Below are positions 13,057 to 21,665 of a stretch of 64,000 bases of DNA, piece after piece (positions within the stretch are counted from its first letter, which is position 1; every line of letters begins with the position of its first letter). Origin of the DNA: Alphaproteobacteria bacterium (GTDB lineage Bacteria; Pseudomonadota; Alphaproteobacteria; CAAHEQ01; UBA3637). The position numbers and the translations under genes are program-made. The notes under the pieces were generated by a model. That model searched no databases. It saw only the letters and a list, made by a program, of their open reading frames with translations, and was not told where the DNA came from. The DNA lies in NCBI GenBank assembly GCA_017647405.1, contig JAGCKR010000064.1, positions 9,988 through 73,987 on the forward strand, written 5' to 3'.

Positions 13057-14226
13057 ATGGTTAAAAAAACTAAAGAAGAAGCCGTTCAAACAGACGGTAC
13101 GGTTAAAACATCATGCAAGAAAGACTGCTGCAAATGCTCTTGTTTGTCAAAATTGAAAACAGGAACAGTTTTAGTTGGCGGTTTTGCTGTTATTGTTGCA
13201 ACAATTTGGGCAATGGCTGAAAATAAATGGATTCAAATTCCTTCATTTTCATCATTTACATCAAAAACAGGCACCGTTGTTGCTACTGTTGATGGTGATC
13301 CTGTTTACATGTCCGATGTGAAAGACTTGGTTGCTCAAATTCCACAATTATCCGAGTTGCCATTTGAAGCTATCTATCCGCAATTAGTTAAGGATGTTGT
13401 TTCAGAAAAAGTTCTTAAAAAAGCGGTTAAGGGTTCTAATGTTGAAAAAAATCCGATTGTTCAACAACGTGTGAATGCCATTTTGTTTGAAGCTTATTTA
13501 GTTGAAAAATTCAAAAAAATGGTTTCTGACGAAGAATTAAAACAAATCTATTTGGAAGAAATCAAAAATTTCCCACGTCAAGAAGAAGTACGTGCCCGTC
13601 ATATTTTGGTTAAATCAGAAAAAGAAGCCAAAGATATCTTGGTACAATTAAAAGCCGGCGCTGACTTTAAGATTTTGGCCAATAAAAAATCTTTGGATGC
13701 TGGAAGCAATAATGGCGGTGATTTAGGATACTTCAAAAAAGAAATGATGATTCCTGCCTTTACAGAACCTGTTTTTGCTTTAAAGAAAGGACAATTATCA
13801 GCTCCGATTAAAACATCATTTGGTTGGCATATTGTGTTGGTTGAAGATCGCCGTTTAGCCGCTCCACCTTCATTTGAAGAAACAAAAGATTTCTTGCGTA
13901 AACAATTGTTTGCTCAAAAAGTGCCAGAATTGATTGAAGATGAATTAAAACGTTTTAAAGCTGAAATTAAAGTTCCGTCAATTGAAACTAAACCGGCCGA
14001 AACCGAAGAAGAAGTAGCTGATATGGCTTTGGAACAAGAAGTTTTACCAGAAGAAACTGAAACGGCTGAACCAGTTGTTGAAAACACAACACCTGTTGTT
14101 GAAGCACCAACAGAAATGCCGGCAGAAGCTCCGGCTGTAACCCCTGTTGAAACACCAGCAGAAGCAACAGTTCCGACAGCAGAAACAACTCCGGTTGAAA
14201 CACCAGTTGTTACAGAAAACAAATAA
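13057..14226 (+). CDS. Membrane-anchored parvulin-type peptidyl-prolyl isomerase (PpiC/SurA-like)
   Basis: Parvulin core ARHILVKSEKEAKDIL...GGDLGYF...SFGWHIVLVEDRR. N-terminal TM and a C-terminal E/T/P/V/A-rich repeat tail. Confidence 0.8.
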   Translation: MVKKTKEEAVQTDGTVKTSCKKDCCKCSCLSKLKTGTVLVGGFAVIVATIWAMAENKWIQIPSFSSFTSKTGTVVATVDGDPVYMSDVKDLVAQIPQLSELPFEAIYPQLVKDVVSEKVLKKAVKGSNVEKNPIVQQRVNAILFEAYLVEKFKKMVSDEELKQIYLEEIKNFPRQEEVRARHILVKSEKEAKDILVQLKAGADFKILANKKSLDAGSNNGGDLGYFKKEMMIPAFTEPVFALKKGQLSAPIKTSFGWHIVLVEDRRLAAPPSFEETKDFLRKQLFAQKVPELIEDELKRFKAEIKVPSIETKPAETEEEVADMALEQEVLPEETETAEPVVENTTPVVEAPTEMPAEAPAVTPVETPAEATVPTAETTPVETPVVTENK

Positions 14227-14245
14227 TTTTCTGAAATAGTAAAAA

Positions 14246-14272
14246 AGGGCGCTTTTAAGCGCTCTTTTTTTT
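14246..14272 (+). terminator. Rho-independent terminator after the parvulin gene
   Basis: GGGCGCTT-tt-AAGCGCTC hairpin followed by a T9 run. Confidence 0.8.
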
Positions 14273-14343
14273 GTTGAAAAATTGATTGATTTGGTATAAA
14301 AATCAAATGATTATTTTTTTTATTTAAGAGTCGGAAATTTAAT

Positions 14344-14366
14344 GGTCGTTAGATTTGCCGGATTTT
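14344..14366. repeat. Repeat copy 1: GGTCG-TTAGATTT-GCCGGATTTT
   Basis: The left 13 nt are the perfect reverse complement of 14453-14465. The right 17/18 nt are a direct repeat of 14467-14483. Confidence 0.85.
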
Positions 14367-14423
14367 GACAAAATAGCCAAAAAAGTTAATCATATGATTT
14401 TATGTAAATTTTTTATAAATAAG

Positions 14424-14452
14424 TTGAAAAGTTTTACCTACTATGGTATAAG
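14424..14452 (+). promoter_or_regulatory. Putative sigma70-type promoter facing the glycan cluster
   Basis: TTGAAA (14424-14429), 17-nt spacer, TATAAG (14447-14452). It lies between the inverted repeats, about 50 nt upstream of ATG 14502. Confidence 0.45.
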
Positions 14453-14483
14453 AAATCTAACGACCCTTAGATTTGCCGATTTT
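14453..14483. repeat. Repeat copies 2 and 3: palindrome AAATCTAA-CGACCC-TTAGATTT followed by GCCGATTTT
   Basis: Read directly from the sequence. Copy 2 is inverted relative to copy 1 and copy 3 is direct. Confidence 0.85.
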
Positions 14484-14501
14484 TATTTTAAAGAAGAAAA
14501 A

Positions 14502-15077
14502 ATGACAATAGCTTATATAGATAAAAATAGTTTATTTATCAGTAAATTAGAGCAAAAAAAATTGCTCTTGTCGTTTTTGAATGTAAAAAAAATAACGGAT
14601 GTTAATTTTATTGAAAATGAGAATATTTTTGCCGATATTTCATTTTTTTCAAAATATAAAAGATTAATTATTCCATCATTATTATTGTTGGGAAAAGATT
14701 TGGATGAAGTGCAACGTCATCTTTCCATCTTGAGTCAATATGAAATGGAACTTATCTCTTTGAAAGAAAATTTAATTTTTTCAACAAAGGATGAAATAAA
14801 AAATTTCATTAAGGAATTCGAAATGATTCTTCAAATGAAAAAAGCATATTCATCTGTGAAAATTAAAAAAGCTCTTCAACAAAAGAAAGAACGAGGATTA
14901 AAAATTGGTCGATCATTTGGAGCAAAAAATAAGAAAAAAACGAAATGCGAAGAGAATCATGACTATATTATCAACGCATTAAAAAAAGGGGAAAATATGT
15001 TGACAATTGCAAATGCAATCGGCGTTAGTATCCGAACGCTTTTTAATTATAAGAAAATTATATTGTCAGGGAAATAA
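14502..15077 (+). CDS. Serine-recombinase (resolvase/invertase)-like protein lacking catalytic residues; probable DNA-binding regulator
   Basis: Collinear by eye with small resolvases, including an E-helix/arm (KKALQQKKERGLKIGRSFG) and a C-terminal HTH (ENMLTIANAIGVSIRTLFNY). YxRVS is replaced by YIDKNS and DRLGR by LLLGK. The track start at 14355 (TTG) is rejected in favour of ATG 14502. Confidence 0.6.
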   Translation: MTIAYIDKNSLFISKLEQKKLLLSFLNVKKITDVNFIENENIFADISFFSKYKRLIIPSLLLLGKDLDEVQRHLSILSQYEMELISLKENLIFSTKDEIKNFIKEFEMILQMKKAYSSVKIKKALQQKKERGLKIGRSFGAKNKKKTKCEENHDYIINALKKGENMLTIANAIGVSIRTLFNYKKIILSGK

Positions 15078-15103: not shown

Positions 15104-15535
15104 ATGAAAACATATTATATTGTTTCGGGAGGATTTGATCCTATACATGAGGGACATATCGAAATGATAAAATCATCAGCGAAGGCTTCTGATGGGGTGA
15201 TTATTTTGGCAAATTCTGATGAATGGCTTATCAGAAAGAAAGGTAAGAATTTTTATCAAATGAAAACGCGTTTGGCCATTTTGGAAAATTTAAAAGGCGT
15301 TGTGGATGTGATTGAATTTGATGATAGTGACGATTCTGCTTCAGATGGTATCAGAAAAGCGCGTGCTAAATATCCGAATGAGAAGCTTGTTTTTGCAAAT
15401 GGTGGTGATCGTGGCAAAGATAATATCCGTGAAGATGCTGTTTGTGAAGAATTAAATGTTGAAAAAGTTTTTGGTGTTGGTGGAGATAATAAAGCCAATT
15501 CGTCATCATGGATTTTAAATAAGTGGGGAAAATAA
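15104..15535 (+). CDS. Cytidylyltransferase-superfamily nucleotidyltransferase (HxGH)
   Basis: GGFDPIHEGHIEM (HxGH motif), FANGGDR and GVGGDNKANSSS. Small (143 aa) sugar- or polyol-phosphate nucleotidyltransferase type. Confidence 0.7.
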   Translation: MKTYYIVSGGFDPIHEGHIEMIKSSAKASDGVIILANSDEWLIRKKGKNFYQMKTRLAILENLKGVVDVIEFDDSDDSASDGIRKARAKYPNEKLVFANGGDRGKDNIREDAVCEELNVEKVFGVGGDNKANSSSWILNKWGK

Positions 15536-15536
15536 A

Positions 15537-16730
15537 ATGAAAAAGAAACTTTTATTCGATGTGGAGCAATTGGCTGCTGATGGTTTAAAAGGAACAGGAG
15601 TTGTTCGTGTTTGTGATGAACTTTTGCGTCGTTTGGTCGCGAATGATGAAGTTGATGTTTATCCGGTTATTGTTTCTGGGCGAGGAGATTTTGAAGCCTA
15701 TTTAAAAGCCAAGGGATTATATAAAAAATTAAAGAACAAAATTGTTTATATGCCGAAGCTTAAATCAACAACAAAAAATTTGAATATTTTTCAAAAAATC
15801 AATTCTTATTGTTTAATCAAATTTTGTTCTTATAAATATAAAAATATTTTGGCTCAATATGATGCTTATATATCGATGTTTACGCCGATTTCACCGGTTG
15901 TTTATCAAAGTAAATTGAAAACGTATATGATTATTCATGATTTGATTCCGATTATGTATCCGGATGGGTGTTCATCTAAATTTATTAAAAAGTTTACGGA
16001 TTGGATGCAAAGAGCAAATGCTGATGAATATTTTGCTGTTTCGAATTTCACTAAGGATGATTTTTTGAAATATCGGCCAGATGAAAAGAATAAACCGATA
16101 CATACGCTTTATTTGGGTGCCAGTAAAAATTTTTCGCCGGTTAAGGATAAAAAAGTTATTCAAAAAGTCAAAGAAAAATATGGTATTAAAACAGATAAAT
16201 ATTTTTTGGCAGTATCAGAACTTTCAGCTCGCAAAAACTTTGTTCATTTACTTAAAAGTTTTGTTGCCTTTTTGGATGAAACAAAAGCGGATGATATTTC
16301 GCTTGTTTTGGTTGGACCTGTTCGCAAAGGGTATGATGCTGTCACATCTCAAGTGATGGGATTTGAAAAATATAAGGATAAAATTGTTCAAACCGGTTTT
16401 GCAGATAATGAAGATTTGGCTCCGCTTTATAGTGGGTCAACAAGTTTTATCTATCCAAGTTGTTATGAAGGTTTCGGATTGCCTGTTTTGGAAGGAATGC
16501 AATGTGGGGCGCCGGTGATAACGGCGGATAACACCTCTTTACCAGAAGTGGGAGGGGATGCTGTTTTATATATTACAGGGCGTGATGAAAAAGAAACCGT
16601 GAAAGCCCTTCAAAAGATATACGAAGATGAAAATTTAAGAAAAGAATTATCTAAAAAAGGAATTGAACGTGCTCAAAAATTCAATTGGGAATCTGCTGTT
16701 CAAGTGGTTGAAAATGCTGTGAGAGGGTAA
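15537..16730 (+). CDS. Glycosyltransferase family 4 (GT-B, RfaG-like)
   Basis: C-terminal EGFGLPVLEGMQCGAPVITADNTSLPEVGGDA (E-x7-E region). Confidence 0.8.
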   Translation: MKKKLLFDVEQLAADGLKGTGVVRVCDELLRRLVANDEVDVYPVIVSGRGDFEAYLKAKGLYKKLKNKIVYMPKLKSTTKNLNIFQKINSYCLIKFCSYKYKNILAQYDAYISMFTPISPVVYQSKLKTYMIIHDLIPIMYPDGCSSKFIKKFTDWMQRANADEYFAVSNFTKDDFLKYRPDEKNKPIHTLYLGASKNFSPVKDKKVIQKVKEKYGIKTDKYFLAVSELSARKNFVHLLKSFVAFLDETKADDISLVLVGPVRKGYDAVTSQVMGFEKYKDKIVQTGFADNEDLAPLYSGSTSFIYPSCYEGFGLPVLEGMQCGAPVITADNTSLPEVGGDAVLYITGRDEKETVKALQKIYEDENLRKELSKKGIERAQKFNWESAVQVVENAVRG

Positions 16731-16733
16731 AAG

Positions 16734-17720
16734 ATGCCAAAAATATCCGTTATAATGCCTGTTTATAACACGAAAGAAATTTATCTAAGACCGGCGATAG
16801 AATCTGTTTTAAATCAAACATATACAGATTTTGAATTGATTATCATTGATAATGGGTCGAAAAAAGAAACTGTTCAAATTTTAGAACAATATAAGGATAA
16901 TCGAATAAAATTATATCGTTTAGAAGAAAATTTGGGACCAGCCGGGGCAAGAAATTTGGGTATAGAAAATGCAAAAGGTGAATTTATTGCGTTTAATGAT
17001 TCTGACGATATTTCATCTTTGAATCGATTTGAAAAACAAATAGAGTTTTTTGAAAAAAATAAAGATATCGGTTGTTTGGGAACGGCTTCAAAGCATATTT
17101 ATAATGGCGTTGAAAAAATTCAGGTAAATCAATTGAAAAGTTCTGATGAAATTGAATGTTTTTTAATTTTTAACGGATGTGCATTCACGAATTCAACAGT
17201 TATGTTAAGAAAAGAAGTTTTAGATAAATATAACTTGAGATATGCATTAGATGATGTTCCAGCCGAAGATTATAAAATGTGGATTAATTTAATTGGAAAA
17301 ACAAAATTCCATATTATGGATGATGTATTGCTCACCTATAATTTTTATCCGGAAAATATTTCTTCTTTAAGACATAGTGAGCAAGAAGAAAAAACAATTT
17401 TATTTAAACAACAGTGTCTTTTACCTTTTTTGAAAGAAAAGGATGCTCAATTATTTGTTCATATTTTAAGTGGTAAACCGCATACATTTGAACAATTAAA
17501 GGAATTTTCTGTAAAATTTCCATTTTATATGGATGTCTTTTCTAAAAGATATTCAACTGAATTATTTAAGAAGTTTTTAAAGAAAAAAATCAAAAAAATA
17601 TTTTATAAAACGCACTCCCTTAAAGGTCAGTTATTTTTGTTTAGATCGTCGTTTGGGCAAATTTTTAATTTTTCTTTAAGTTGGCGTTTATGGTGTTTGA
17701 TAACGAAAGGAGTTTTATAA
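16734..17720 (+). CDS. Glycosyltransferase family 2
   Basis: ISVIMPVYNTKEIYLRPAIESVLNQTYTDFELIIIDNGS and the NDSDD (DxD) motif. Confidence 0.8.
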   Translation: MPKISVIMPVYNTKEIYLRPAIESVLNQTYTDFELIIIDNGSKKETVQILEQYKDNRIKLYRLEENLGPAGARNLGIENAKGEFIAFNDSDDISSLNRFEKQIEFFEKNKDIGCLGTASKHIYNGVEKIQVNQLKSSDEIECFLIFNGCAFTNSTVMLRKEVLDKYNLRYALDDVPAEDYKMWINLIGKTKFHIMDDVLLTYNFYPENISSLRHSEQEEKTILFKQQCLLPFLKEKDAQLFVHILSGKPHTFEQLKEFSVKFPFYMDVFSKRYSTELFKKFLKKKIKKIFYKTHSLKGQLFLFRSSFGQIFNFSLSWRLWCLITKGVL

Positions 17721-17830
17721 ATGAATTTAGTTGTCAACGCGGTTAAGTAATCTGAAATTTTAGGATAAACGGCCATTGTTCGTGATGATAAACTTATTTG
17801 ATTTTGGTTGTTTCTGAAAGGAAGAATATA

Positions 17831-20155
17831 ATGCCCAAAATATCAATTATTGTTCCGGTTTATAATGTTGAACAATATTTGCCAAAATGTTTGGATAGTT
17901 TAATTAACCAAACCTTAAAAGATATTGAAATTATCTGCGTCAATGATGGGTCAACGGATGGGTCTTTATCTGTTTTAAAAGATTATGCTCAAAAAGATAA
18001 ACGTATTCGGATTATTGATAAAGAAAATTCAGGTCCTGGGGCTTGCCGAAATATGGGGATTGAAAAAGCAACTGGTGAATTTATTCAATTTGTTGATTCG
18101 GATGATTGGATTGAACCTGAAACTTGCGAAGTTTGTTATCAAAAAGCCAAAGAACATAATGTTGATATGGTCAGCTTTAATGCCTTATTCCATAAAAAAG
18201 AGAAATCTAATCCATATATTTATTATAATATAAATGAGGAAAAAATAATCACATGGCAAGATATTTCCAGAGTTCTTTTTCAGAGCCATTTTAATGTTTG
18301 GCACTATATATTTAAAAAATCATTATTAGATAAACATCTAATTCGTTTTCCAAATATTGTGATGGGAGAAGATGTTCCTTTTACTCTAAATGCGTGGCTA
18401 TCAGTTAAAGGGGTTTATATTATACCTAAGCTGTTTTACCATTATGACGATAGTAGAGAGACTTCAATTTGTCGTTCATATCACAATAAAGTAGATACTT
18501 TTTCATTTTTAGAAATGAGTCGGAATATGATTAGTCCTTTTCAATCTAAAAGTTTAAATGAAAGTTTTTCTATGTTTAAATTAGTAAAGTTATTCTATGA
18601 ATATAGAAAAGAAATTGATGTTGTTGAACAAAAAAAATTCAAAAAATTTGTAAAAAAAATCTGTACAGAATCAGAATACAAGAAATTTATTTCGGCATGT
18701 GGTTATCAAAGGTATTTGTTTGGAAGAATTCCACTATTTGAAGCTAATAAGAAAAAAAATAAAACAATATATAAAGTTTTAGGGATTAATTTTTTAAGTA
18801 TATTAAAAAAAACAAAAAGATCACAGCGAACAGATAAAAAAGATTATAAAAAAACTTATAAATTATTGGGGGTTCCCTTTTTTAAAATTAAGAAAAAATA
18901 TAATTTTTATGGGTATAAAAAGTTTGTTTATTTTTGTGGGATTTGTGTTTATAAAAAATCAAAAGATAAATTAAATAAAAAAATTGCATCATTTAACAAA
19001 AAATATCAAAAAACACTTAAAAGATTAAAAATAAAAGTTCTAAATAAAGAGAAAATTAGAGTTGCTTTTTATGTAAATGATTCAAAGTTTAAAACACAAA
19101 AACTTTTTAATTTAATGAAAAAAAACAAATATTATCATCCATTTGTTTTGGTTGGTAAAAATTCTGTGCAGGAGAATAGTGCGGAATATCAAACGCAAGA
19201 AGAAGTTCAAAAAATTTTTGATTATTTTAAAAAAAATAAAATGGAAGTTTATTTTGCTTATGATTTTGAATCTAATAAACCGATCCCATTAAAAACGTTT
19301 AAACCTGATATTATTTTTTATTCGCGCCAATATGCATTAGCAAAAGAGCATAAAATAGATGTTATTGCAGATTATTCTTTGCCAGTATATGTTCCATACT
19401 TTGTTCCGAACTCTCCCTTGGCTGTGGAGGCAGGAAGTGAGTTTCATAACCTGTTATGGAAATATTTTATTTTAAATGCTGAAACAAAAGCAAATTATAG
19501 TCCTGTTATGCAAAATAAGGGGGAAAATTTGGTTGTGACGGGACATCCCATATTAGATGTTTATCTTGAACAGATGAAAAAACAAGAGAAGTACGTTATT
19601 TATGCACCACATTGGAGTGTTGGGGATACTTTATTGAATTATTCAACATTTGAATGGAGTGGAAAATTTATGCTCGAATGGGCGCAACAGCATCCTGAAT
19701 TTAAGTGGGTTTTTAAGCCCCATCCAATGTTATATAATCGTTTAATCACTTCTGGATATATGACTAAAGAAGAAGTTGAGAAATATTATTCTGAATGGGA
19801 AAAAATAGGGATATATTATTCTGGTCCTGATTATTTTGATTATTTTAAAAATTCAAAAGCATTGATTACCGATTGTGGGTCTTTTATTGCCGAATATTTG
19901 CCGACTGAAAAGCCGGTGATTTTAATGAGATCGTCTAGAGCGACACCTTATAATTTTTTGGGGAAAATAATATCAAACTCTTACTATAATATTCATAATT
20001 CGGATGAATTAACCGAGTGTTTAGAAAAAGTTTTAGTGCTTAAAAATGATGATAAAAAATCAAAGCGAATTCAGACGTTAACAAATTTAAATTTAATACA
20101 AAATGCATCCAATAATATTATTAAAGTTTTAAATCGGGAGTTGGGAATAAAATGA
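17831..20155 (+). CDS. Bifunctional GT2 glycosyltransferase / CDP-glycerol glycerophosphotransferase (TagF/TagB-like)
   Basis: N-terminal ISIIVPVYNVEQYLPKCLDSLINQT...VDSDD. The C-terminal domain has YAPHWS, KPHP and LITDCGSFIAEYLPTEKPVIL, which resemble the Glyphos_transf motifs YAPTWR and LITDYSS. ATG 17831 has a GGAAG RBS. Confidence 0.75.
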   Translation: MPKISIIVPVYNVEQYLPKCLDSLINQTLKDIEIICVNDGSTDGSLSVLKDYAQKDKRIRIIDKENSGPGACRNMGIEKATGEFIQFVDSDDWIEPETCEVCYQKAKEHNVDMVSFNALFHKKEKSNPYIYYNINEEKIITWQDISRVLFQSHFNVWHYIFKKSLLDKHLIRFPNIVMGEDVPFTLNAWLSVKGVYIIPKLFYHYDDSRETSICRSYHNKVDTFSFLEMSRNMISPFQSKSLNESFSMFKLVKLFYEYRKEIDVVEQKKFKKFVKKICTESEYKKFISACGYQRYLFGRIPLFEANKKKNKTIYKVLGINFLSILKKTKRSQRTDKKDYKKTYKLLGVPFFKIKKKYNFYGYKKFVYFCGICVYKKSKDKLNKKIASFNKKYQKTLKRLKIKVLNKEKIRVAFYVNDSKFKTQKLFNLMKKNKYYHPFVLVGKNSVQENSAEYQTQEEVQKIFDYFKKNKMEVYFAYDFESNKPIPLKTFKPDIIFYSRQYALAKEHKIDVIADYSLPVYVPYFVPNSPLAVEAGSEFHNLLWKYFILNAETKANYSPVMQNKGENLVVTGHPILDVYLEQMKKQEKYVIYAPHWSVGDTLLNYSTFEWSGKFMLEWAQQHPEFKWVFKPHPMLYNRLITSGYMTKEEVEKYYSEWEKIGIYYSGPDYFDYFKNSKALITDCGSFIAEYLPTEKPVILMRSSRATPYNFLGKIISNSYYNIHNSDELTECLEKVLVLKNDDKKSKRIQTLTNLNLIQNASNNIIKVLNRELGIK

Positions 20156-20544
20156 AACGAGTAATTACATATGGAACTTTTGATGTGTTGCATTATGGAC
20201 ACATTAATTTACTGAAAAGAGCCAAAGCTTTGGGTGATTATTTGATTGTTGTTCTTTCAAGTGATGAGTTTAATAAACAAAAAAATAAGCAATCATTTTA
20301 TACTTATGAACAACGCAAAATGATATTGGAAGCTTGCAGATATGTTGATTTAGTTATTCCTGAATATAATTGGGAGCAAAAAGTTGAAGATGTGAAAAAA
20401 TATCAAGCTGATGTCTTCGTGATGGGTGATGATTGGAAAGGTCAATTTGATTTTTTAAAAGATTATTGCGAAGTTGTTTATTTGCCAAGAACCCCAGATG
20501 TTTGCTCGACGAATACCAAAAAACATTTGAAAGAGAAAGGGTAA
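20152..20544 (+). CDS. tagD: Glycerol-3-phosphate cytidylyltransferase
   Basis: MKRVITYGTFDVLHYGHINLLKRAKALGDYLIV is a near-canonical TagD/TarD N-terminus. 130 aa. Its ATG overlaps the upstream TGA stop. Confidence 0.85.
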   Translation: MKRVITYGTFDVLHYGHINLLKRAKALGDYLIVVLSSDEFNKQKNKQSFYTYEQRKMILEACRYVDLVIPEYNWEQKVEDVKKYQADVFVMGDDWKGQFDFLKDYCEVVYLPRTPDVCSTNTKKHLKEKG

Positions 20545-20552
20545 TAAAAACA

Positions 20553-21665
20553 ATGAATCCAATAACACCTGTTTTTGAAAAAAATAATATTGCGATTTGT
20601 TTTTCTACAGATAATAATTTTGTTCCATATTTAGCTGTTGTTATGCAATCATTGGTACATAATATTTCACAGTTTAATAACTATGATATTGTAATTTTAG
20701 AAGAGAATTTAACAGATTTTCATAAAAAAGACTTTTTTAAGTATTCAAGAGAAAATGTTTCCATTAGATTTATAAATATGACTTCATATATGGAATCTTA
20801 TAAAGATGTATGGTATATTCATAATTGGGGTAAAAAATGGCACTCTTTAAGTGTTTATTATCGATTTTTTATTCCTGAAATATTTAAAGAGTATCAAAAG
20901 GTTGTTTTTTTGGATGGGGATATCATTATTAATATTGATATTGCTGAATTATACAATGTTGATTTAAAAGAAAATTTAGTTGGTGCAGTTCAGGATTTTG
21001 CAAGAAATATCAAAAATGACGCTATAGCAGAATATTCTGAAAAAGTTTTGGATGTTGATAGAAAAAAATATTTTAATGCAGGGGTTCTTGTTTTTAATTT
21101 GAAAAAATTAACAAAAATAAAATTTTTGGATAATTGTATTAAAACACTCCAAGAAATTGGTCGCCCTAAATTACAAGATCAAGATATTTTAAATATTGTT
21201 TTAAAAGATCAAGTCTTATATTTAAATAACGCATATAATTGTTTGTTTTGGTCCATTTTACACGGACGGAGCAATGCTAAAGAACTACTAGACTCAGAAC
21301 TTTATAGTTTATGGGAGGAAATGGCAAAAAATCCAAAAATATTCCATTATGCAGGCTCTAGAAAACCTTGGAGTGAACCTAATTTAGAATATGCAACTTA
21401 CTTTTGGTCATATGCTCGTCAAACCCCATTTTATGAAGAGATTTTGGGTAGAATGATTGATTTTAAAATTTCTCAACGACAGAATCAAAATATTTTTCAA
21501 AACTATCCGAGTATGTTTTTTTTGAATGCTAAAAAAATCATTTATAAAATTAAAAAGTTATTTTCAAAGGGTGAAAAAAGAAAAAAATATAAAATGAAAT
21601 ATAAAAAAGTTAAATCGATTATAAAAGAAGCTAAGAAGTTTAAAAAAAATCTTTTTAAAATTTAA
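20553..21665 (+). CDS. Glycosyltransferase family 8 (LgtC/RfaJ-like)
   Basis: FSTDNNFVPYLAVVMQSL, VVFLDGDIII, YFNAGVLVFN, QDQDILN and HYAGSRKPW motifs. Lys-rich amphipathic C-terminal tail. ATG 20553 replaces the track start at 20466. Confidence 0.75.
   Translation: MNPITPVFEKNNIAICFSTDNNFVPYLAVVMQSLVHNISQFNNYDIVILEENLTDFHKKDFFKYSRENVSIRFINMTSYMESYKDVWYIHNWGKKWHSLSVYYRFFIPEIFKEYQKVVFLDGDIIINIDIAELYNVDLKENLVGAVQDFARNIKNDAIAEYSEKVLDVDRKKYFNAGVLVFNLKKLTKIKFLDNCIKTLQEIGRPKLQDQDILNIVLKDQVLYLNNAYNCLFWSILHGRSNAKELLDSELYSLWEEMAKNPKIFHYAGSRKPWSEPNLEYATYFWSYARQTPFYEEILGRMIDFKISQRQNQNIFQNYPSMFFLNAKKIIYKIKKLFSKGEKRKKYKMKYKKVKSIIKEAKKFKKNLFKI

Follow-up and report, generated by a model that had tools for sequence, protein, structure and literature searches.

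A 96-bp promoter segment in the DNA analyzed here is, with a probability of roughly 80%, an active inverton of an Mpi-like regulon, placed before a glycan operon. The window, meaning the whole 64,000-nucleotide stretch under analysis, corresponds to G000:C63:9988-73987, where G000 is an assembly of 1.61 Mb in 68 contigs with 35% GC. Wild gut samples contain the segment both as in the window and reversed, and it therefore represents a real on/off switch. In the ON state, the promoter would read across the proximal recombination site (R) into a catalytically dead invertase paralog and the glycan-biosynthesis operon. A recombinase encoded elsewhere would exchange strands at the central GT/AC dinucleotide of the two sites and so flip the segment, after which both promoter-like elements point at the terminator of the upstream PPIase gene. 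In this OFF state, site R gains a second CGGC-extended arm, giving a predicted long hairpin followed by a U-run that would probably block read-through. The locus is one of a set of invertons with a common site, the others of which have interiors of about 255 bp and precede genes for Pmp-repeat autotransporters, and a site held in common would allow the cell to vary surface glycan and adhesin-like proteins with one enzyme.

Two recombination sites around a predicted promoter

The features of the locus are as follows, in window coordinates.
14241-14270, + strand: GGGCGCTT/AAGCGCTC and then T8, a hairpin terminator belonging to the parvulin PPIase gene upstream
14335-14356, + strand: distal recombination site L, AAATTTAATG-GT-CGTTAGATTT, in which an asymmetric GT separates two 10-bp arms
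14357-14452, unstranded: invertible segment, 96 bp between the sites, bounds taken from contig comparison
14365-14393, + strand: second promoter-like match, TTGACA-17-AATCAT, at the distal (A) end of the segment
14424-14452, + strand: main promoter, predicted from a sequence match, TTGAAA-17-TATAAG with TGG directly 5' of the -10 hexamer
14453-14474, + strand: proximal recombination site R, AAATCTAACG-AC-CCTTAGATTT, with 10-bp arms around AC
14475-14488, + strand: GCCG and T-run (GCCGATTTTTATTT), the outer half-site extension of site R
14502-15077, + strand: first gene of the operon, a 191-amino-acid paralog of Mpi-family invertases, identified by domain scan and alignment
15104-21665, + strand: downstream glycan genes, encoding two cytidylyltransferases, GT4, GT2, a long GT2-containing protein, and GT8

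The first-pass annotation had described three copies of a short core around the promoter, and the sequence carries all three as described: GGTCG-TTAGATTT-GCCGGATTTT at 14344-14366 (GGTCGTTAGATTTGCCGGATTTT), AAATCTAA-CGACC at 14453-14465 (AAATCTAACGACC), and C-TTAGATTT-GCCGATTTT at 14466-14483 (CTTAGATTTGCCGATTTT). A repeat finder and pattern searches reduce the three copies to a pair of 22-bp sites, L and R, which are mutually inverted and identical at 20 of 22 positions when R is reverse complemented. Extended arms of site L cover approximately 14330-14361 (GTCGG... / ...GCCGG), and the outer arm of site R runs on into GCCG, to 14478. Written towards the center, the half-sites are GAGTCGG-AAATTTAATG, AATCCGGCAAATCTAACG, GGTATAAGAAATCTAACG, and AAATCGGCAAATCTAAGG; the CGG(C) extension is present in three of them and replaced in the fourth by the -10 hexamer. 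The perfect palindrome claimed for the second and third copies exists for the 8-bp arms only, as its center, CGACCC, is asymmetric. The right flank shared by the first and third copies is present as strings, but past recombination did not leave it behind: the flank consists of the GCCG at the distal end of the consensus half-site and a T-run, a combination found in three of four half-sites, and the claimed direct repeat (TTAGATTTGCCG(G)ATTTT) is simply each site's right-hand arm with its GCCG extension and T-run.

Positions 14453 to 14465 are the exact reverse complement of 14344 to 14356, confirming the 13-bp perfect inverted repeat. Four perfect 13-bp inverted-repeat pairs were present in the window, compared to a mean of 1.04 in shuffled sequence. 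A repeat of this length is therefore near chance in an AT-rich window, and its significance rests on recurrence of the site. As stand-alone evidence the inverted repeat was dropped, since shuffles yield about one pair per window. The other three pairs in the window (4130/4412, 15789/16058, and 40387/40696) have arms 40 to 300 bp apart; all are AT-rich, and their number is close to the chance expectation.

Within the 96-bp segment, the promoter proposed earlier could be read exactly, with TTGAAA at 14424-14429, a 17-nt spacer, and TATAAG at 14447-14452. It is inferred to be of the sigma-70 type; its -10 hexamer adjoins site R, and in the window orientation it reads into the operon. The second promoter-like match points in the same direction, and its TTGACA is kept in the related genomes G003 and G004 and absent in G013. 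The design in which -35, 17-nt spacer, and -10 elements adjoin the proximal site recurs in six species (G000, G003, G013, G006, G007, and G018), whose segment interiors have diverged. On the other side of the switch, the predicted PPIase terminator insulates it from upstream transcription.

Orientation also changes the RNA structure predicted at the proximal site. RNA spanning site R in the OFF orientation folds with −20.5 kcal/mol (z score of −5.3) compared to −6.8 kcal/mol (z score of −1.3) in the ON orientation, and a terminator scan flagged the site R hairpin in the OFF orientation only. In that orientation, a terminator-like hairpin takes its 3' half and its U-tail from positions 14475 to 14488, and the CGGCAAA...TTTGCCG-T-run pairing can also be seen in G004 and G013, in their OFF copies. 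The ON transcript, taken from its predicted start, has only −1.8 kcal/mol at the site; this start falls inside site R, which would leave the ON transcript unable to form the site hairpin. According to these folding models, the OFF-state hairpin at site R probably blocks read-through as a terminator. A search of 14100-14700 for known RNA families returned no match near any gathering score.

The protein encoded at 14502-15077 lacks the YIRVS and SRLGR catalytic motifs of serine recombinases but keeps the C-terminal GR...NKK arm and helix-turn-helix (HTH). It scored 16.7 bits against Pfam Resolvase and 43.6 bits against NF009949, the NCBIfam "master DNA invertase Mpi family," which has a curated equivalog cutoff of 272 bits. 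The idea that this protein closes a regulatory loop is speculative and on balance doubtful: made in the ON state only, the dead paralog might bind the 32-bp sites or form dead heteromers and so freeze the state, with the OFF state assembling the terminator, in which case the switch would be self-referential. If true, phase variation would have a built-in, orientation-dependent inhibitor, freezing could extend from the glycan switch to the whole autotransporter regulon, and flipping would both remove the promoter and build a terminator from the recombination site itself.

Orientation of the segment in other assemblies and species

Contigs carrying the locus were located by the exact downstream protein or by members of its 90% cluster. 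Among same-species loci from independent public assemblies, at least three have the orientation of the window and two are flipped.
L056, ENA ERZ27256955: orientation as in the window (7 further similar contigs are listed, their orientation unread)
L057, ENA ERZ28019291: orientation as in the window
L058, NCBI GCA_016852305.1: orientation as in the window
L030, Logan SRR24653786: flipped
L059, ENA ERZ28436054: flipped

The L030 contig contains the reverse complement of 14357-14452 at 96 of 96 positions, between a right flank with 2 mismatches in 700 bp and a left flank with a handful; 2 positions in the outer arm of site L differ from the window. The same inversion is present in L059, with 2 SNPs in the segment, and the flanks of both flipped contigs match the window apart from a few strain differences. 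When these contigs were aligned, the breakpoints coincided with the inner edge of each 22-bp site, with the outer arm of L staying in place and the inner arm traveling with the segment. Because both inner arms are identical, the exchange point is not mappable at this locus; it most likely lies within the sites, at the central GT/AC, 118 bp apart from center to center. The first-pass annotation had offered a small invertible promoter flipped in trans as one of two explanations. This proposal is supported by the exact segment being reverse complemented in place in contigs from other samples and, as to action in trans, by an adjacent gene devoid of catalytic motifs and intact Mpi-family invertases encoded elsewhere in the genome. 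An exact pattern of site R with its flank had 0 matches in JGI metagenome contigs.

A C/T polymorphism also occurs at the equivalents of window positions 14349 and 14461, two bases from the center. It affects both inner arms in L057 and one arm only in L058, a pattern that hints at sequence exchange between the two inner arms.

Related species carry the same elements. The half-site 13-mer GGTCGTTAGATTT occurs 5 times in G000, 15 times in G013, 8 times in G003, twice in G011, and once in G004. It is confined to these five related species of the genus, with 0 copies in the other 16 congeners searched, and a reversed control pattern had 0 hits in those five genomes and 1 in all 80 searched. The arrangement of dead invertase gene and glycan genes is also found in G003, G004, and G013. 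In G013, where PEPCK is the gene before the cassette, the interior has the opposite orientation to that in G000 and G003, and in G004 the distal (A) end adjoins the gene, i.e., the segment is flipped. In addition, the G003:C1 contig (L023 2147-2496) runs from gene through segment to gene and then stops, making it a hairpin contig; its terminal 104 nt are the reverse complement of the other flank at 104 of 104 positions, so that both junctions must have existed in that sample. A second hairpin contig, at the start of G013:C12 (L036 1-363), contains an autotransporter-type switch with flanks identical at 32 of 32 positions. In both contigs the assembler passed through the switch and returned along the reverse complement of the flank it had come from. 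From the assemblies and hairpin contigs together, we infer that switching takes place within one clonal population. Based on a reading of flank types, the promoter end lies away from the gene-type flank in about 9 of 10 paired switches in G013, and in one (L038) it faces that flank.

Outside the five species, G006, G007, and G018 have a pilin-like gene, two sites 104 to 130 bp apart, the dead-invertase gene, and glycan genes. The promoter in these genomes is TTGCAA-17-TATAAG adjoining the proximal site, and the arms differ slightly (e.g., GCAAATTTAACG-GT-CGTTAAATTTGC). Gene and sites thus stay together in seven species. In G018:C52 (L033, intergenic 1507-1785), the two sites, AAAAAAACG-GT-CGTT... 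and AAATTTAACG-GT-CATT..., do not differ in the strand that carries GT; being directly oriented by the center rule, they may leave this switch locked ON.

Among congeners, the switch, dead invertase, and glycan genes form a cassette that is located at different chromosomal places, with a PPIase gene as upstream neighbor here, PEPCK in G013, and the pilin-like gene in G006, G007, and G018. Its glycosyltransferase content varies between congeners as well, and from gene content and placement the cassette appears to resemble a variable glycan island in its behavior. In G000, G003, and G013, numerous contigs terminate within switch elements, which makes the switches a major cause of fragmentation in these metagenome-assembled genomes (MAGs).

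The site family, its candidate recombinase, and rival explanations

A tolerant pattern search identified 19 sites on 14 contigs of G000, none near the three invertase genes described below and many within 300 bp of contig ends. When oriented by their flanks, 19 of 19 read outer arm-GT-inner arm, with the consensus AAaGTCGG-AAATCTAAsG-GT-CGTT.... The central GT and the neighboring G and C are invariant, and flanking positions vary. According to BLAST and alignment, most of the sites delimit repeats about 300 bp long, in which the two sites are separated by about 255 bp, and paired sites on one contig are 118 to 277 bp apart. Inner end B of these larger elements reads ...CATGGTATAAT... and faces outward through the site. 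One kind of outside flank leads to the AAGGAGG...ATG of genes with products starting ...TLRELKKRYLNILKKC, and the other kind follows a housekeeping gene and consists of a terminator-like hairpin.

Twelve open reading frames (ORFs) in G000 encode large proteins with the N-terminal motif (T/A)L(R/K)ELKKRY..(I/L)LKKC, several of them cut by contig ends (contigs C12, C14, C20, C25, C33, C42, C43, C48, C50, C52, and C54). One complete ORF of this kind was scanned and contained Chlamydia-PMP repeats and an autotransporter beta-domain. A switch lies directly upstream of six such ORFs; three of these have the promoter end next to the gene-side flank (C54, C20, and C50), and three have the other end there, at the same junction (C52, C43, and C48). 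Fixed flanks around an interior that turns are the pattern of an inverton, unlike that of a transposon family. The possibility raised in the first-pass annotation, that the motif is a dispersed genomic repeat unrelated to this locus, was half right: the motif is dispersed, over 19 sites, but not unrelated, since it is the common inverton site. As the shared recombination site of an inverton family, the dispersed motif supports the switch.

A solo site that has no partner, at G000:C59:48406-48427 (outside the window; L031 6406-6427), TGGCATAAG-AAATCTAACAACCCTTAGATTT, lies within a second small locus with a pilin-like gene, a cytidylyltransferase gene, and a glycosyltransferase-like ORF, and looks like the relic of a switch such as the one in the window. 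At G000:C58:26134-26400 (L001 ~1480-1760), an autotransporter-type switch has one site only, and its other end seems to run straight into an autotransporter beta-domain-like fragment, which suggests that a deletion locked the switch and orphaned its promoter.

G000 encodes three intact serine recombinases of about 200 amino acids, on C35, C59, and C11, in which the YIRVS and SRLGR catalytic motifs are intact, and four tyrosine recombinases, two of them on an island of C59. Against NF009949, the serine recombinases scored 294.2 bits (C35), 274.6 bits (C59), and 255.7 bits (C11), so that the C35 and C59 copies pass the Mpi-family cutoff. The C35 invertase (G000:C35:60892-61485) is located among housekeeping genes, unlinked to the switch. 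Its homologs are 85 to 90% identical in exactly G003, G004, G011, and G013, the other site-bearing species, where the best matches of the C59 and C11 copies reach 53 to 70%; this high identity may mean simply that the five species are each other's closest relatives. The dead paralog of the operon is closest to the C35 invertase, and both have the recognition-helix motif GVSxxTxxNY. Taken together, these comparisons make the C35 Mpi-family small serine invertase the best candidate for the flipping enzyme. In both the window and flipped L059, partner sites differ two bases from the center (T versus G), and an invariant 2-bp center appears to suit a serine-type overlap better than a tyrosine-type overlap of 6 to 8 bp.

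Three other explanations were weighed against an Mpi-like inverton. Tyrosine recombination, in the style of fimS with FimB/FimE or of RecV, would accept the inverton as real and treat the central 6 bp as the overlap. The genome could supply such an enzyme, with its four tyrosine recombinases and two of these on the C59 island, and the site also parses as 8-bp arms around a 6-bp spacer. However, partner spacers differ in the window and in flipped L059 (TGGTCG versus GGGTCG), and tyrosine recombinases are generally intolerant of mismatch between the overlap regions of partner sites. The constancy of only the central GT with its neighboring G and C, the decayed serine invertase encoded behind the switch, and the conserved Mpi-family enzyme elsewhere in the genome also point away from a tyrosine recombinase, which we consider unlikely. 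The sites could instead be mainly operators, with the HTH protein of 14502-15077 binding the palindromes to autoregulate its operon and inversions being incidental. Operator half-sites for this protein were the other explanation offered in the first-pass annotation. Dyad-symmetric sites suit a dimeric binder, the C-terminal arm and HTH that Mpi-family invertases have are retained in the protein, and gene and sites occur together in seven species, yet most of the 19 sites precede autotransporter genes with no such protein nearby, the segment demonstrably inverts, and neither an invariant asymmetric GT center nor a fixed polarity has a role in an operator. As a main function, operator activity is thus highly unlikely; as an added layer, operator binding by the dead paralog is possible and compatible with an inverton.

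Almost no credence is given to the explanation in which a miniature transposable element, or another dispersed repeat that plays no part in switching, has these repeats as its ends, with the orientations arising from independent insertion, homologous recombination, or misassembly. It draws on the dispersal of the motif and on its position: the motif terminates ~300-bp repeats at which the assembly breaks, as many contig ends show. Against it, the same 96 bp is precisely inverted within a species between identical flanks, with neither target duplication nor flank change. The two orientations come from five independent assemblies made with different assemblers (flipped in L030 and L059), a perfect repeat of only 13 bp offers little length for RecA-type recombination, a conserved promoter facing outward is present in the interiors, which always precede surface-structure genes, and no pair of sites on one contig has the spacing of about 1 to 2 kb expected around a transposase gene. 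Termini of miniature elements or insertion sequences were rejected on the basis of the in-place inversion and of flanks recurring with both inner ends.

Comparison with known systems

The switch is a known kind of element, an Mpi-like inverton, in a new lineage. Invertons have been reported widely across bacterial phyla in surveys (PMC11602134), and our literature search found no paper on the switches of this lineage. Mpi of Bacteroides fragilis is described as inverting 13 regions, 7 of which are PS promoters (PMC4747536, citing Coyne et al. 2003). The system described here resembles that regulon in having an unlinked small serine invertase (in this case a candidate), many dispersed short promoter segments with a common inverted-repeat site, and targets that are surface polysaccharide loci and other surface structures, and the candidate enzyme passes the NCBIfam equivalog cutoff for the Mpi family. 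It differs in its host, an uncultured gut alphaproteobacterium rather than a member of the Bacteroidales, in an interior of only 96 bp with the -10 hexamer adjoining the site, and in the Pmp-type autotransporters that make up most of its other targets. Bacteroides loci begin with UpxY/UpxZ regulators, whereas the first gene here is a catalytically dead Mpi paralog. The site, CGGCAAATCTAAsG-GT-CGTTAGATTTGCCG, appears to be this lineage's own.

If this reading is right, uncultured gut Alphaproteobacteria use the Bacteroides strategy of one master invertase, for which there is a candidate here, acting on many small promoter switches. The resulting variation would cover surface glycans and adhesin-like autotransporters and would bear on evasion of phages and host immunity by these common gut residents. 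Numerous contig breaks and "hairpin" contigs in the MAGs are also explained by the switches. The system is compact and experimentally tractable, as its site measures 32 bp and its switch 96 bp, and the dead invertase is a natural partner.

The Hin, Gin, Cin, and Pin systems (hix/gix sites) share with this one small serine recombinases, imperfect palindromes with an asymmetric 2-bp center that sets polarity, and two inverted sites flanking a promoter or gene segment. In Hin and Gin, the invertase gene lies inside or beside a segment of about 1 kb (Hin) to several kilobases (Gin), and inversion needs a Fis-bound enhancer. Here, by contrast, the candidate active enzyme is unlinked, the arms are 10 to 14 bp, and the 96-bp segment offers no obvious place for a Fis enhancer. 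With its adjacent gene catalytically dead (43.6 bits), the locus is not a Hin/Gin-type cassette. The fimS switch of FimB/FimE and the RecV switches of Clostridioides difficile are likewise short invertible promoters with short inverted repeats that control ON/OFF phase variation of surface structures, and RecV serves several loci, as does the enzyme proposed here. Those systems use tyrosine recombinases, whereas site symmetry, the 2-bp center, and the associated genes point to a serine enzyme in this lineage.

The predicted OFF-state hairpin at site R also has a counterpart. At the EPS locus of B. fragilis, transcription correlates inversely with how many inverted repeats lie between promoter and genes (PMC4747536, citing Chatzidaki-Livanis et al. 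2008), an inverted-repeat barrier analogous to the hairpin proposed here. The difference is that the strong hairpin of this switch is predicted in one orientation only, as flipping brings in the second GC-clamped arm. A dead invertase that would be expressed only in the ON state and a recombination site that doubles as a predicted OFF-state terminator are two features of note in this switch.
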